From the sequence record NC_103192.1: 64,000 nucleotides of DNA; one strand, given 5' to 3'. This stretch comes from a phage. Below, piece by piece: positions 40,101-64,000 of the stretch. The notes under the pieces are model-generated. The model was not told where the DNA came from. It was given only the letters and a program-made list of their open reading frames with translations, and did no database searches. The position numbers and the translations under genes were made by a program. Positions within the stretch are counted from its first letter, which is position 1, and each line of letters opens with the position of its first letter.

Positions 40101-41180
40101 AAGCTTACTCTTCTGTAGCAGGCAAGGAGATTTCCCGTAACGATGGTAAGCCTGTCACGTACGGTGTTATGTACGGGGCACAAAAAGATAAAGTTGCAGA
40201 TATGCTGGACATCTCTCCAGAGTTGGGACAAAGGGTAATCGATGCGCTTTGGGATGCCAACCCCGGTCTTAAGGGGCGTAAAGAGGATCTGGAGAAATTC
40301 TGGGAAGCAACTGGTAAGAAGTTTATCTACTCTTTTGATGGTCATGCCATCTGGACCCGATCTAAACACTCTTTACTTAATGCATACCAACAAAATGGTG
40401 GTGCATCGTTGTGTGACTTAGTTGGGATACTCATGCACCACCAAATGGTGAAGCGTGGGTGGTACGATGAAGGTGTTCGCCGTATTATCTATTACCATAA
40501 ATAACATTGTGGCTTCGTGCAGTGATGCACGTCGAAAACCTCTTTAATTGACGGGAAGGCTAAGTTGACTTTTACACCTAAACATGGTAAAAGCTCGATA
40601 TGCTAATCCGCAGCGAAGCATCCGAGAGGATGAACGTTCAGAGACTATCGAAAGCATAGCTCCAGCATAGTTTGGTGTGAAGAAGCGAGTAGAGTAGGCC
40701 AGCAAGTGCGGTCGAAATGAGAGGTGCCTTGGTAACAAGGCAGTGAGATAGTCCGATCCATACGGGAAACTGTATGGCTATGCACGTAATGGTGCGGGGT
40801 AGCTTAACGACCTACCTGAACTATTGGATGAGTACCAACTTCAAGTACCTGACACACCGAAGTATAAGACTGTGTACACCTTCGACACAATCGAAGAACT
40901 GGAAGCATTTAAGGCAGAGCAGGAGGCCAAACTTCATGTGTTCGACGGTCATAAGTACAAAAAGGCACGCAAGGATGAGGACGGAAACGAAGTGGTTGAC
41001 AGAGACGGAAACACGGTGTACGATCCTATCCTGAACGATGACGGAAAGCTTGAACTTATCTGGAGCCCTGTGGGTGAAATGGTGGTGCATTGCTTCTGGC
41101 AAGCTTCTAAAATGATGGGCGTCCCATTCCAGATCACAGGTGAATACTTGTGTGGGGCTAATTGGGGTAGTTGTCACTAA
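37106..41180 (+). CDS. family A DNA polymerase, exons 37106-40498 and 40827-41180, containing an intein
   Basis: N-terminal exo motif FDFEASGL; motif A IDGSNLEQL; KPVTYGVMYGAQ (motif B region); HDE motif split across the intron (YYH | DEYQL); C-terminus GANWGSCH. Confidence 0.85.
39119..40087 (+). mobile_element. intein (323 aa) with LAGLIDADG-like homing endonuclease domain
   Basis: begins CYSGDTQILTEKGW (block A), block B TDQH, LAGLIDADG-like LLIAIHDDGHL and LFIASLSNWDGW, ends ...VCGN followed by Cys +1; extein flanks GDAH/CNNAK fit the family A pol O-helix region. Confidence 0.7.
40499..40826 (+). ncRNA. group I self-splicing intron (ORF-less)
   Basis: core elements P aattgacgggaagg (40546-40559), Q aatccgcagc (40605-40614), R gttcagagacta (40636-40647), S agatagtcc (40746-40754); 5' exon ends in U, intron ends in G; restores the HDE motif in frame. 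Confidence 0.8.
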
Positions 41181-49761: not shown

Positions 49762-49799
49762 TACTTGAAAATTCCTGGCATATCAAGTATAAGGGGGAT

Positions 49800-50265
49800 T
49801 TCTAAAATGGATTTCCTCCTTTTGATATTTCACCAGGCTGGATATTTTAAAATCCTTAGAAAATCAGAAAATGGATCGAAAACTAAAATGGATTTTTTCA
49901 AGACAGGCACGATAAGCTGCGCTGCTCATTCTATCATTCGCACCGTACTTCAAATCACAGTTCCAGATTTTCCACACACACTCTCGCCCATCTAACAGGA
50001 CTTTCCCAACTTACCTTCGACCTTTTATGACAATAAGTTAATTATTATCAGTAAGTTTTGATACATCTCTCTCAGTACTCGATCTGTTTTTCATTTCAAA
50101 GATTGGATTTTCTGAAAATTTTTCTCGATAAATTTCTCAGTACTCGATCTGTTTTTCGTTTTCTGAATTGGATTTTCTGGAAATCGTTCCAGCTCTCGAC
50201 CTGAAATTTTTGGGGACGAAATCGATTTTTCGTTTTCAGAAATGGATTTTTAAAATTTCTATATG
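49800..50265. repeat. iteron-like AT-rich repeat array
   Basis: about 6 copies of (a)aatggattt(t); three imperfect tandem copies of a ~65-bp unit from 50071 containing ctcagtactcgatctgtttttc and ttggattttctg(a/g)aaat. Confidence 0.6.
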
Positions 50266-50365
50266 GGAATATTTTAGTGGATACTATTTTATAGGAAATT
50301 GTTACGGAGGGTAATTAGCATGCTAACTAAATTTATTAAATGCGAAAAGTTCTCATTTAGAATTT

Positions 50366-50690
50366 TGAATGATAATCATTCTCGTTTGCAGAATAACGGG
50401 CACCCCCGGTGATTGTCTCCCGGCCCCTGTTGCCCCGGCTTGTTATTATAGTATCACACAGGACAAAGAAAGCAAAGACTTTTTGCATAAATTTTTAAAT
50501 GATAATGATAACCGTTCTCATTTTATGCAGCGCCCATCCCCGGTGGTTGTCTCCCCCGTCACCGGTGCCTGCCGTCCTTTCGATAGGTATATTGTGCCAC
50601 CTGGCGGGGCCGCTGTCAACACTTTTCAAAAAAAAAAAATTCTAACCTGATGCGCTAACCGTTGCAACCTGGCGGGGCCAGCCTGGCAGG
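50366..50690. repeat. GC-rich repeat family (copies A1, A2 plus acctggcgggg motifs)
   Basis: aatgataat...gttctc...cccccggtg(a/g)ttgtctccc repeated at about 50366 and 50495; acctggcgggg at 50598, 50667, 50863; inverted copy at 59727-59767. Confidence 0.5.
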
Positions 50691-50986
50691 TCCGCGCTAT
50701 AAAGTAAGCAGCTACAGAAGAGGTACAAAAATGAAAAGTAATATAATCCCCTGGAAAATGTAGCGATCAATGCCGCTGAAGTTATCGCCCTGGTTGAAAA
50801 GGCTATGGCGGGAGCGTTGGAACATAAAGAAGAGTACGAAAAAATGGTGGTTAACCTGGCGGGGGGCGGCAGGTGGATTCTATCATAAAAATAATTTAAA
50901 ATAGTCGTTGACAACAAGGTTAATCATGGTATTATTACCCTACAAGGTGAACAACACCACACTAATTAACAGAGAGGATAAAAATC

Positions 50987-51184
50987 ATGAACGCCTACGG
51001 AATTAAAGTACGTCGCAACACTCGCCAGGTGGTCACCGATCAAATGGTTTGCCGGGTGGATGTAACCATCAACAACGGGCAAGGCCTTTATAAATTCTGT
51101 CGCGGTCAGAGCTATACCCTGCAACAGCTTAATCGTTGCGCCCTGACAAAAGGTCAGATCAACCACTGGTTTAATAAAAAATAA
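50987..51184 (+). CDS. hypothetical protein
   Basis: 65-aa ORF with GAGAGGA upstream and a TTGACA-type promoter at about 50907. Confidence 0.5.
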   Translation: MNAYGIKVRRNTRQVVTDQMVCRVDVTINNGQGLYKFCRGQSYTLQQLNRCALTKGQINHWFNKK

Positions 51185-59471: not shown

Positions 59472-59675
59472 ATGACTACAGCTAACCGCCTGATCGCCGT
59501 CCTGAACAAAGCAAAGGCTAACCGCCTGGATGTTCAAATCAAAGATCAAGCAAATGGCGAGATCCTTGCTACGGTGTCCGATGGCGGTTATGTATCGGAA
59601 TCATTTTTATCAGGGAGCTTAGATCATCTTGTTTGGAAATTAGAAATTATCGTGGAGGATATGCAGATCATCTAA
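59472..59675 (+). CDS. hypothetical protein
   Basis: 67-aa ORF. Confidence 0.5.
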   Translation: MTTANRLIAVLNKAKANRLDVQIKDQANGEILATVSDGGYVSESFLSGSLDHLVWKLEIIVEDMQII

Positions 59676-59684
59676 TCTTTACAA

Positions 59685-59712
59685 AACAGGGCTTGCAATG
59701 GTCCTGTTTTTT
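59685..59712 (+). terminator. intrinsic terminator
   Basis: acagggcttgcaatggtcctgt followed by tttttt. Confidence 0.65.
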
Positions 59713-59726
59713 GTTATACTTATTCT

Positions 59727-59767
59727 ACGGCAGGCACCTGGCGACGGGGGGAGACAATCACCGGGCC
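59727..59767. repeat. inverted copy (A3) of the GC-rich repeat seen at 50533-50576
   Basis: cggcaggcacctggcgacggggggagacaatcaccgggcctgcc is approximately the reverse complement of ccccggtggttgtctcccccgtcaccggtgcctgccg. Confidence 0.5.
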
Positions 59768-59879
59768 TGCCTGTCATATAAGAACTATAAAAACCGTTGA
59801 CATCTGCCATGGGGTGGGGTAACATTTATCTTGAAGGGGCAAAAGTGCCCACACAACAACCAGGAGAGAGGAAAACATT

Positions 59880-61099: not shown

Positions 61100-63600
61100 C
61101 CATAAACGGCCCCACCCGGCAAGTGGAATAATTGACTAGCCAGCAATTGCCTGCACTGTACAAACATACAGGTAAAATAGTTATTGCATAACCTTTCATT
61201 GTGTGGTAGCAGTGCCATTTTTACACGTTTTTCCTTCCAAAATTGCACGTAATGCCGCTATTGCATAAATTTTAACCTGATGCATATCTTCAATATCTTG
61301 TCAACAACTAAAAATCTTTATAAGTCATACACTTACACCACCACAAAAGCGTGTTCTACGTGAAAAATCGGGTGTAACTATAGCCGCCAGATCTCAGAAT
61401 TTACGTACGCTCACCAGTCTATAGCCTGCTAAGTATTTATTCCAACCATAGAATAACGGAATAGTCAATACCTGCATAAAATAATTATTCGTGTAAACTG
61501 CATAACATAAATCAGCCAGGGTGTCAACATTTTTCGTAAACATCTCGAAATTATCACGATGAGTTATCATAAACAGAGAAATCTTTAGTCGTCTAATGTT
61601 TACTGTACATTACTATACTGGCTGGAATCATTAGATGACTAAGAGAAAGATAAGAAATAGTTAACAATGTAATTGTTTTACCTGTAACAATAAGGCAACT
61701 ATGCAAACGAATGGCATGGCGCGACGGAGTCGCGACATAATATAAAAGCAGTAACCATCACCCCCGTGATAGTTTGTCTGCAAACTATTAATCAGATCAT
61801 AGTTGCCTTGTAGTTAGTTAATCATGACACAATAAGCAAGGCAACTATAGATCTGCTAATAGTTGCCCTGCTTTTATATTATGTCATAGAAACACCCGAA
61901 GGGGTGACCGAAGGTCACCTGGCCTAGCCAGTGAAAGATTATTAACTTGTTAATTGTTAACTTGCTAATTGTTTTCATGCAAACGAATGTCATGGCTTAT
62001 CATATCTGCGTGAACAGTGAAACATGGAAATGATAAATATGTGAACAGTTATCCATGTAAACTATTAGACATGCAAACAATCAGGTGTGCAAAAGTGACA
62101 TAGTATGTCACCAGTATGTCATAGTATGTCAGACAAGTTTTTCTCCTCTTTGTCAAGTGCTGCATGGAAAATTTACAAACTGGTATGGTAGCATTTTTGC
62201 GGCCCTGTTTACATTCAGGAGTGTATGTATAATCCTTGTTGTGTGGGCGTTTAGACGTCTGGACGGTCAGAAGTCCGCAGGTTAATATCTAATCTATTGG
62301 TTGCTAACTATATCCCACACAAATAGTAAGAAATATAATTGTTATATGCGTAAACAGTAACTCATGTTATCAATCCATGTATGGATCGCCAGTGGTGCGC
62401 ATAATGGGTATTATGTTAAATTGCCCGTAATGATAACCATTCCCACAATGATAGGTATTCTCATTCACCCCCACAAGATAGGTTGCAAATGTTGTGCCAC
62501 TGTGTGAACGGCCTCACCTATTAATTTGCCCCACTGCCTCGATATTTGAGAATTGTTATAAGAATGAGAAGTATTCCCATTCCGTCCGCCTGGCAGCACT
62601 CCAGTCGCTAACGCTCTCGGGCTGAGAGCTATGCTCGATGCTACCGGCTCCTGACAGGGAGGCACTCCTGTAGGACAGGTCAAAATCGGGGCATAACTGG
62701 ACCCCCCTTCAGATATTTCTGGCTGACTCTTCAGGTCTGTGTGGGAAAAGCCAACCTCTCCGGCAGAGGGGAGGGGGTCAATTAAAAAATTTACGTGGTG
62801 TATGAAGCGCTCTTCAGGCAAGGTGTGTATTATGGGAGGAATCACTCTTCAGGTGATGATATTTGTGGGTGTGATATTTGCTGGAAAGCCAGATATGACG
62901 GGACTCCCGGCGGGGCAGGGGTAGTACAGACAGGGAAAATGTGGAGAATGTGGTGGGTAAATTGATCAGGCAGGTAGAGTATGAAATATGTTACAGGTAT
63001 GTTAAATATGGAGGGTGAATATCTGTAAGATTTGTGTGTAAAATCAAAGACTTAAGTGGTGTTGTGGTATTTTCTATAAATAATTCAAGTTTAATAGGTA
63101 ATATTTGTCTCTATCCACTTTGTGTGGTAACCAGATTCAGATGAAATTGGTTTACAAGTGTATACATAATATACAAATTAAAGATACAAGAAACCCCCCT
63201 CCCCCTTCGGCTACCATTCACCTTTTCCTCTGACTGGTACTTAAACACTTATTCAGACTCTTCAGGTTATCACCCATATATCATATGGCAGTGACTGGTG
63301 TCCTCCGGCCCCTCTTTCGTCACCCGTCCGCTTCGCCATGCTAATGCCATAGCCAAAGGTTCGGTTGTTCACCCTGTTCACTCAGGTGTATCTCCATACC
63401 CCTTCAAACCGAAGAGAACAGAAAACCCGAATTACTCGGTAAAAGAAAAGAGAAGAACTTAATTTTATCAGGATAGGCAAGAATGTCAAGGCATGACTGC
63501 TCACTAAACAAGCAAACAGTCATGTGTGGGAGGTAAGTGATTGTGGTGGTAGGAAATTTAGTTGAAAGATGTGTTATAGGTGCTTCCAGCACTTTAGCCG
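61100..63600. repeat. 2.5-kb non-coding, repeat-dense region
   Basis: no convincing ORF; ggcaactat/atagttgcc x4 in alternating orientation (61691-61879); 18-bp inverted repeat gacataatataaaagcag / ctgcttttatattatgtc; agtatgtca x3 (62098-62135); ctcttcagg x4; attgcataa x3. Confidence 0.5.
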
Positions 63601-63616
63601 GGCAGCTAATTGTGTG

Positions 63617-63832
63617 TCAGTCCAGCGGTTCATCTACTACTTCACTGAAATCAATGTTCAGAGTCTCTTCCCAACCATCGATCTCAGCACAAGAGTGGAG
63701 TTCTTTAGGGTTTACTCCCAAAGCCTCAGCAACAGAGTCTATATTTAACACCTCTGGCAGGTATGATTCATCGAATTCAAGGTAAATCAGGCCACGAGTG
63801 TTGTCAGCTCCACCAAATATTTCTATCTTCAT
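63617..63832 (-). CDS. hypothetical acidic protein
   Basis: 71-aa ORF with AGAGGAG 5 nt upstream of ATG on the minus strand. Confidence 0.5.
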   Translation of the reverse strand: MKIEIFGGADNTRGLIYLEFDESYLPEVLNIDSVAEALGVNPKELHSCAEIDGWEETLNIDFSEVVDEPLD

Positions 63833-64000
63833 AAAATCTCCTCTGGAAATGAGAGTGTGAACAGGGTTATACGTTCCAATGCACTGGAATTTATATACGT
63901 TTGCCTCTTCAGGCCATGCTTTAGCATGATAAACTTGTGTGGGCTCGGTACTTCATAGTCTGCCACCTCTGAACTCTTCGTTCTCAGGCATGATAGAGAA

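Follow-up and report, generated by a model that had tools for sequence, protein, structure and literature searches.

A conserved GC-rich repeat family bordering the early-gene region of rV5-like phages: a possible face-to-face promoter and operator module

In phages 186 (pR/pL) and P2 (Pe/Pc), transcriptional switches are built from promoters that face each other, and at Fur-repressed promoters the operator box classically lies in the spacer between the −35 and −10 hexamers. T4-type phages carry PeSL (promoter-early stem-loop) cassettes. Here we describe GC-rich repeats in a phage DNA stretch of 64,000 nucleotides (nt) (sequence record NC_103192.1; "the window" denotes this whole stretch). The repeats form a sequence family that is conserved across phage genera, keeps a fixed geometry and is non-coding; we tentatively read them as a module of two face-to-face promoters with an operator, similar to the 186 and P2 switches and possibly iron-responsive. 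They mark the borders of a hypervariable early region. The genome papers of rV5 (PMC3606486) and CB7 (PMC7344957) describe sigma-70 promoters and a 'non-coding' box, not this module, and no regulator, origin or non-coding RNA in this region.

The window comes from a Vequintavirus, an rV5/FV3-like coliphage: positions 50000-51000 match 121 phage records, nearly all of them Vequintaviruses, at 90-95% identity, and the closest relative at the repeat locus is Mangalyan (96%). The locus lies within a long rightward early-gene unit (rV5 open reading frames (ORFs) 164-208; layout from PMC3606486). Three exact copies of the 16-mer CCGGTGRTTGTCTCCC are present in 64 kb, two on the + strand and one on the − strand, compared with an expectation of 0.52 from shuffled sequences even with three mismatches tolerated. 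All copies share a 38-nt block, nCAGAATAGCGGGCA(GG/CC)yCCGGTGnTTGTCTCC, and an nhmmer profile built without the window copies recovers only A, C and B in 64 kb. The three copies, and the two signals that enclose the third, are as follows.

50388..50423, + strand: block A (core 16-mer 50406-50421; nhmmer E 4e-11).
50525..50575, + strand: block B with an extension, CCCGTCACCGGTGCCTGCCGT, common with copy C (core 50540-50555; nhmmer E 1e-4; also in the repeat listing).
59729..59781, − strand: copy C (block 59747-59781, core 59749-59764; nhmmer E 2e-9), without a Fur-like box.
59683-59710, + strand: predicted terminator of the upstream gene of 67 amino acids (aa).
59797..59825, + strand: canonical early promoter TTGACA-17-TAACAT, serving the next gene (start 59880).

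An earlier note on this DNA had described a GC-rich family present in both orientations, and the exact 16-mers bear this out. The two direct repeats that it reported are genuine, including their aatgataat..gttctc part, an AT-rich half that corresponds to a Fur-box-like palindrome; the inverted copy near 59.7 kb does sit between a predicted terminator and the next promoter; and the contrast with the AT-rich surroundings is seen in a G+C content of 0.45-0.56 at 50350-50700 vs. 0.26-0.36 immediately upstream. What goes beyond that note is the Fur-box-like nature of the AT-rich half, the promoters on the G-rich strand and the conservation across genera. Copy B, which contains the CCGGTG/CACCGG inverted repeat (50540-50545 and 50560-50565), is an extra tandem unit confined to Vequintaviruses, and its right half resembles copy C (CCGGTGRTTGTCTCCCCCGTCRCCRGGTGCCTGCCGT).

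The block is kept, in unannotated DNA, in five genera of Vequintavirinae (Vequinta-, Certre-, Seuna-, Mydo- and Henunavirus-like) and in Stephanstirmvirinae. In sensitive BLAST searches, window positions 50332-50423 are 80-90% identical in Mydovirus, Seunavirus, Certrevirus, Hena1 and others, where the matching DNA is mostly unannotated, and positions 59684-59764 are similarly conserved in Stephanstirmvirinae (phi92 and phAPEC8 groups). Across the subfamilies, the repeats are more conserved at the nucleotide level than the neighbouring genes. Nine regions of 13-26 kb each were compared (rV5, PBES 02, 4MG, Mydo, phiWec179, F4M1E, PsgM04F, POP18 and SSE121). Eight of them have sites A and C on opposite strands at a distance of 7.3-11.9 kb, oriented so that the C-rich strands converge; the SSE121 region has an A-site only. 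Between the A and C sites lies a series of small early genes. Matches to the 54-nt core of copy C occur in 178 phage records, in 2-4 places per Vequintavirus genome, and the family is thus a low-copy element rather than a dispersed repeat.

In all 23 units compared, a predicted sigma-70 promoter lies on the G-rich strand, with its −10 hexamer followed after 7-8 nt by the block; 14 of the 23 score at least 8.5, the probability of such a score in the background being 0.046 per 60-nt window. The hexamers of these G-strand promoters are kept across units and the spacers are unrelated. Examples outside the window are TTGACA-16-TATTAT (L084), TTGACC-17-GATAAT (Hena1) and TTGCAA-17-TATATT (Certre- and Mydovirus); in the C-type sites of PD06, EspYZU08, DU_PP_IV, 4MG, Mydo and L112, a TTGnnn hexamer lies in a terminator loop and TATnCT follows 16-18 nt on. 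In the window, the promoter-like and operator-like sites are these.

50448..50475, − strand: G-strand promoter of unit A, TTGCTT-16-TACTAT with an overlapping TATAAT, conserved among Vequintaviruses; predicted start at ~50441, pointing leftward into block A.
50591..50619, − strand: G-strand promoter of unit B, TTGACA-17-CACAAT (10/12), with an extended −10 (TG) and an upstream T-run, pointing leftward into block B; in 7 Vequintaviruses both hexamers are kept and the spacer varies.
50639..50677 (hexamers 50667 to 50639), − strand: third leftward promoter-like site, TTGCAA-17-TAGAAT, conserved to ~50690, where the alignment fails.
59693-59720, + strand: G-strand promoter of unit C, TTGCAA-16-TATACT, its −35 hexamer in the loop of terminator 59683-59710.
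50365..50394, + strand: weak C-strand promoter-like site, TTGAAT-18-CAGAAT (7.5/12), its spacer filled by a Fur-box-like palindrome.
50501..50519, + strand: Fur-box-like site of unit B, GATAATGATAACCGTTCTC, 16/19 to the E. coli 19-mer consensus.

Fur-box-like sites were scored against the E. coli Fur consensus, either as the 19-mer GATAATGATAATCATTATC or in its 7-1-7 form TGATAATnATTATCA. In unit A, the 7-1-7 site TGATAATCATTCTCG at 50370-50384 agrees with the consensus at 12/14 positions and the 19-mer at 50365-50383 at 15/19. The unit B site is the sole match in 64 kb at up to three mismatches, none of 100 shuffles yields one, and its gap to core B is 18-24 nt. With 16/19 and 12/14 agreement, the boxes of the window match the Fur box in sequence. 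Whatever the genus, all A-type units have a 7-1-7 box at a distance of 20-21 nt from the core, as do the C-type units of 4MG and Mydo; additional boxes stand at 49 and 78 nt, and all are on the same side of the core, against a background of one box per 1,758 nt. An inserted 30-nt partial copy of the start of the block widens the gap to 50 nt in C-type units of Certre- and Seunavirus. The box of 4MG is perfect (TGATAATGATTATCA, 14/14), other relatives reach 13/14, and compared with shuffles Fur-like boxes are enriched 3- to 100-fold in related loci and 2.6-fold in the window. At the C-sites of Stephanstirmvirinae, another palindrome, TTGATAG-N7-CTATCAA, takes the position of the box, between TTGATA and TATATA, which is how a regulated promoter would be expected to look after a change of operator. 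Of the functions that the earlier note had considered, transcription signals are the one favoured by these comparative data, with promoters on both sides at fixed registers in all genera examined.

Fur-like boxes also occur apart from the repeats. The window is ORF-poor at 62200-64000 (~1.8 kb), a stretch with three such boxes at 62431-62561 that, by coordinate mapping, appears to correspond to the 'non-coding' box of the rV5 genome paper, and arrays of boxes lie beyond the C-site in phiTE (L133 2039-2850), L132 and POP18 (L141 1265-1853).

In the arrangement that these features suggest, the GC-rich block (~40-50 bp) would be the overlap of two promoters facing each other. The strong arm would be the early-type sigma-70 promoter on the G-rich strand, starting 7-8 nt ahead of the block; the weak arm would be TTGAAT-18-CAGAAT on the C-rich strand, starting at the opposite block edge, with the Fur-box-like palindromic operator in its spacer. 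Since the predicted starts are ~40 bp apart, polymerases on the opposing arms should exclude or collide with each other, and the two short opposing transcripts would be complementary. Iron-loaded Fur would keep the weak arm shut, and low iron would open it, shifting the balance. The module would thus be present, inverted, at both ends of the early-gene stretch, with the strong arms directed outward and the operator-guarded weak arms inward. We infer promoter firing, Fur binding and interference from motifs and their spacing, and regard the module as quite possible, short of probable.

Several observations weigh against it. The C-strand promoter is weak, with an 18-nt spacer, and position 2 of its −10 hexamer varies (CAGAAT, CTGAAT, CGGAAT); in Certrevirus-type C-sites the box, 50 nt off, falls outside any promoter spacer; and copy C of the window has no convincing C-strand promoter and no box within 130 nt. 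There is no regulator gene beside the module, the flanking ORFs having no Pfam match and belonging to PHROG families of unknown function. The model leaves the sequence conservation of the 38-nt overlap unexplained, and the literature that was searched documents neither transcripts nor start sites nor Fur binding in any of these phages. The same search, which took in few subscription journals, found nothing linking Fur, small RNAs or the repeats to rV5-like or phi92-like phages.

It is doubtful that virulent rV5- and phi92-group phages sense host iron status through a Fur-guarded switch at both ends of the early block, and that their box arrays, multiplying as the phage genome replicates, could also titrate Fur away from host promoters. 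If they do, iron limitation would divert early or antisense transcription and lift the repression of host iron uptake, to the benefit of the phage, and if the boxes bind Fur, strictly lytic phages would have wired a host metal sensor into their early programme. Iron limitation is normal in an infected host, so a Fur circuit could affect phage performance in vivo; the phages in question serve for therapy and typing, with E. coli, Salmonella, Klebsiella, Cronobacter and Pectobacterium as hosts.

The C-strand signals would also fit a Fur-repressed trans-acting small RNA (sRNA) with RyhB logic, whose 5' seed would be the block (GGGCAGGUCCGGUGAUUGUCUCC, C-rich and anti-Shine-Dalgarno-like) and which the G-strand antisense would silence, although we consider this unlikely. 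Such an sRNA would account for a Fur-like box placed exactly within the TTGAAT-18-CAGAAT spacer and for conservation that starts at the predicted +1 and gives way to a variable 3' part, as in 5'-seed sRNAs; however, the weakness of the C-strand promoter and its variable −10 hexamer count against it too, there is no match to RyhB or any other Rfam family, and 9-mer complementarity in the window is limited to the copies themselves and one ordinary ribosome-binding site. Transcript ends give a divided picture: L112 (GGGGCGAAAGUCAACCCCUUUUCUU) and L160 (a TACAAT −10 plus GGCUUCACUAGAAGCCUUUUU) have a clean C-strand terminator and copy C of the window is followed by a bidirectional terminator on the − strand, but no terminator follows A or B in the window, and the C-strand hairpin after the C-type sites of Certrevirus, 4MG and Mydo has no U-tail, the terminator there serving the G-strand gene.

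Folding analysis does not single out an RNA. The earlier note had proposed hairpins in the cores (CCGGTG...CACCGG); one is present in copy C (59729-59775), where it is significantly more stable than dinucleotide shuffles (z −4.06 on the − strand and −2.46 on the + strand), whereas blocks A (z +0.35/−0.33) and B (z −0.52/−0.88) are no stabler than shuffles. Across 31 units from many phages, the mean folding z is −0.6 on either strand, and for 15 A-type and 14 C-type units RNAalifold found no consensus structure (about −2 to −4 kcal on either strand). A covariation check across related phages, which that note had suggested, gave 13 pairs and 0 compensatory changes in the best-structured subgroup, consisting of only 7 Certrevirus-type A units. 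In these seven, the share of paired cells is 91% for the C strand and 90% for the G strand; the asymmetry between G-U and A-C favours the G strand in the outer helix and the C strand in the inner helix; as the two disagree, it gives no strand verdict. The locus gave no match in Rfam 15, whether at the gathering threshold or with E relaxed to 10, and no tRNA or tmRNA (ARAGORN); three related loci were likewise without an Rfam match. The family is defined by sequence, not by fold, and the suggestion of a small structured RNA is left unsupported. A small G-strand peptide was discarded as well, the GUG-initiated ORF of 16-17 codons being lost in the CAGG variant of the block.

That the repeats are functionless ordinary intrinsic terminators, processing hairpins or a decaying duplicated coding sequence is very improbable. 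Copy C is indeed a strong hairpin adjoining a terminator, and ORF 50369-50650, which overlaps the repeats, is annotated in rV5 and other phages, inconsistently among relatives, and has its own PHROG family (phrog_14993). But A and B fold no better than shuffles, the terminator scan found no rho-independent terminator at either, and no copy has a U-tract: the hairpin of copy C runs on into UCAUAUAAG (+ strand) and GUAGAAUAAG (− strand). Conservation across subfamilies in excess of that of the neighbouring genes likewise speaks against a remnant. As for coding, among 7 Vequintaviruses the variable columns of 50369-50647 are spread over the codon positions as 9/5/11, without a third-position bias, and are as dense (9%) as in the non-coding stretch upstream (10%). 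Near-invariance in these seven genomes extends over 50290-50685, including 79 nt upstream of the ATG, and collapses just past 50690. The ATG itself falls inside the Fur-like box of unit A, and most annotated records of the other genera have no ORF at the repeat position. This supports the earlier note, to which the ORF looked spurious; the phrog_14993 match merely reflects earlier annotations, and in more than 100 genomes the annotated ORF is most likely non-coding DNA. The − strand ORF 50642-50917 overlaps a variable, indel-rich stretch.

The G-strand promoter, universal and strong, could alternatively serve a G-strand leader or short RNA only, with the tandem Fur-like boxes as a roadblock that, together with a UAUUCUG tract, would decide between stop and read-through; at the A-site, read-through would reach the iterons, where it might prime or activate an origin, and at the C-site it would enter the early genes that come next. 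Behind the block there is always GCCCGCUAUUCnG, with the boxes following at 20, 49 and 78 nt, conserved iteron-like repeats lie just past the boxes, and three stacked leftward promoter-like sites occupy 50441-50667 although all genes there run rightward. We nevertheless hold this to be improbable: the sequence at 50 kb shows neither a canonical terminator nor a switch in GC skew, copy C of Vequintavirus and Stephanstirmvirinae has no Fur-like boxes, the wobble-pair asymmetry gives the G strand no overall preference, and Fur is not known to act as such an elongation roadblock.

A role at the DNA level, either as the binding site of a phage or host protein or as a homology patch for the exchange of promoter-plus-gene cassettes, in the manner of the PeSL of T4-type phages, has in our estimate a low probability. 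It agrees with a family in which the sequence is conserved and the fold is not, and with an asymmetric block that forms an inverted pair around a region whose gene content varies. Some units are mosaics about the core: A and C sites alike show the CACCC/CAGGC dimorphism, and L155 is a hybrid with a Vequintavirus-type left half and a different right half. The cassette of 67-aa gene, terminator and block C (59472-59764) recurs in Justusliebigvirus (PD06-like) contigs with 97-99% protein and ~88% DNA identity, far above the overall likeness of the two subfamilies, which points to lateral exchange. The mosaic units, including this cassette, are compatible with exchange at the core. However, there are merely 2-4 copies per genome and no dispersed family, no recombinase gene was recognised near the repeats, no known binding-site consensus was recognised, and the orientation of the bracketed segment relative to its flanks is constant, with no inversion in all genomes listed. 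Crossover sites of an invertible segment (gix or hix type) find no support: the inverted pair is present, but no invertase was recognised nearby and only one orientation occurs in the genomes listed.

None of 5,426 complete E. coli genomes contains the repeat block, so that the search of host genomes that the earlier note had proposed did not find the motif; among species-representative bacterial genomes, a 22-mer pattern gave chance-level matches in unrelated metagenome-assembled genomes (MAGs), with none in Enterobacterales. A host repeat of the repetitive extragenic palindrome (REP), bacterial interspersed mosaic element (BIME) or miniature inverted-repeat transposable element (MITE) kind was rejected on these results. 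One chance match to the pattern belongs to a repeat, ...TTCGCTCCACC then GGCATAGCCGGTGGTTGTCTCC, that opens a dozen Oscillospiraceae MAG contigs (L182-L203, ~116-137) and looks as if it flanked a tRNA or tmRNA-like gene on its 3' side. A 15-mer scan of IMG/VR was of little use, yielding mostly chance matches inside apparent protein-coding sequences. Among the GenBank records similar to the locus, 16-18 of the MG0656xx series are named 'Campylobacter phage' and are rV5-like coliphage genomes (85-100% identity at the locus); their host attribution looks doubtful.

Motif 2, ACCTGGCGGGG, occurs exactly at 50599, 50667 and 50854, in line with the threefold recurrence of acctggcgggg reported before; with one mismatch there are 4 matches vs. 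0.47 expected, and none of 100 shuffles reaches 4. Copy 1 (50599-50609) lies in the spacer of the leftward unit B promoter and varies among relatives, as a spacer does, and copy 2 (50667-50677), which is conserved, abuts the −35 hexamer of the third leftward site. The third copy is given below.

50854..50864, + strand: motif-2 copy 3, inside a small ORF that is frameshifted in the window.

At this copy the length of the G-run varies, the hairpin partner arm CAGGT is CTGGA in rV5 and the fold has a z of −1.45; it is probably outside the module. The small ORF (50732-50904), with a good ribosome-binding site at its ATG at 50732, is intact in Gotham (F10B_0201) and frameshifted in the window by a 1-nt deletion. 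Because ACCTGGCG(AC)GGGG is also found on the + strand in copy C, motif 2 looks like the far arm of the B- and C-type units read in the opposite orientation; common descent of the two cannot be shown. Motif 2 also resembles the 5' end of 5S rRNA, yet no Rfam 5S match was obtained at E up to 10, and this candidate was dropped.

Iteron-like direct repeats lie to the left of the module, at 49799-50250, with units of 47-55 nt at 50065-50250 spaced 65 and 74 nt and TTTCTAAAATGGATTT occurring four times; at the matching position Certre- and Mydovirus have at least three repeats with the core GGkTCTCGATCG, which suggests a conserved array of protein-binding sites and perhaps an origin of replication. 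No switch in GC skew, which could have marked an origin, is seen at 50 kb. A 270-aa protein encoded upstream of the A-site in other genera was considered as an iteron binder and set aside, as it has no ortholog in the window and belongs to no known family. Just after the A-site, Certre-, Mydo-, Seuna- and Phapecoctavirus carry an element of ~130 nt (CTACCGGCGATCCACCTTCC...GTTAGCCCCGCCTTTTCGCCGTGGGGTGGCGTCTC) that has no Rfam match and is absent from the window.

L135 1455-1600; L137 1690-1810; L138 (− strand), adjoining its A-site: the ~130-nt element.

It is preceded by CTTTAC-N4-CTTTAC, on the opposite strand GTAAA-N5-GTAAA, which is presumably reminiscent of a CpxR box. Elsewhere in the window, a group I catalytic intron was identified at 40489-40776 (+ strand; Rfam RF00028, 73.7 bits, E 8e-17, full-length model match).

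Other known sites do not account for the block. It has GATTGTC in common with the FecI-dependent fecA promoter, but the spacing to GAAT is 4 nt off; the spacings of sigma-54 and sigma-E promoters do not fit; and there is no convincing fit to IHF, CRP, DnaA, Ter, chi, OxyR or IscR sites. The pseudo-ToxI of phiTE (PMC3475682) is a different repeat with no similarity.

Several described systems resemble parts of the locus. Copy C, with its −35 hexamer in the loop of the upstream terminator and its −10 hexamer after the T-run, recalls the terminator-promoter coupling that a preprint reports to be widespread in bacteria (bioRxiv 10.64898/2026.08.19.745784). This coupling fits the left edge of copy C only, not the block or the Fur-like boxes. 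Like lambda nut and HK022 put, the repeats are conserved elements just downstream of outward early promoters, inverted on two sides of a region; unlike them, they have neither boxA nor boxB and no conserved loop, and the A-site has no leftward operon on which an antiterminator could act. CGCUAUUC agrees with lambda boxA, CGCUCUUA, at 6/8 positions only. With PeSL cassettes the repeats share an early sigma-70 promoter followed by a GC-rich element, a position bordering small variable early genes and signs of exchange between lineages; they differ in that there are 2-4 copies per genome (3 in 64 kb), the stem-loop is not conserved and operators adjoin.

The likeness to Fur-repressed promoters and RyhB consists of a Fur-box-like palindrome between −35-like and −10-like hexamers, followed by a short non-coding sequence with a conserved 5' part. 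Unlike RyhB, the repeats are phage-borne, have an opposing promoter, show no sequence or Rfam similarity to it and lack a conserved terminator (no U-tailed terminator of the RyhB type follows A or B, and a C-strand U-tail follows C-type sites in some genera only); their Fur box is a putative one. The switches of 186 and P2 remain the nearest parallel to the proposed promoter and operator module: two opposed sigma-70 promoters with starts tens of bp apart (here both predicted, at ~40 bp), a strong and a weak arm, a palindromic operator on one arm, and short transcripts that overlap and are complementary (here predicted). Unlike those switches, the predicted module belongs to a virulent phage with no lysis-lysogeny decision to make and has no adjacent repressor gene; its operator resembles the Fur box of the host, its overlap is a conserved GC-rich block, and it is present twice, as an inverted pair 7-12 kb apart.

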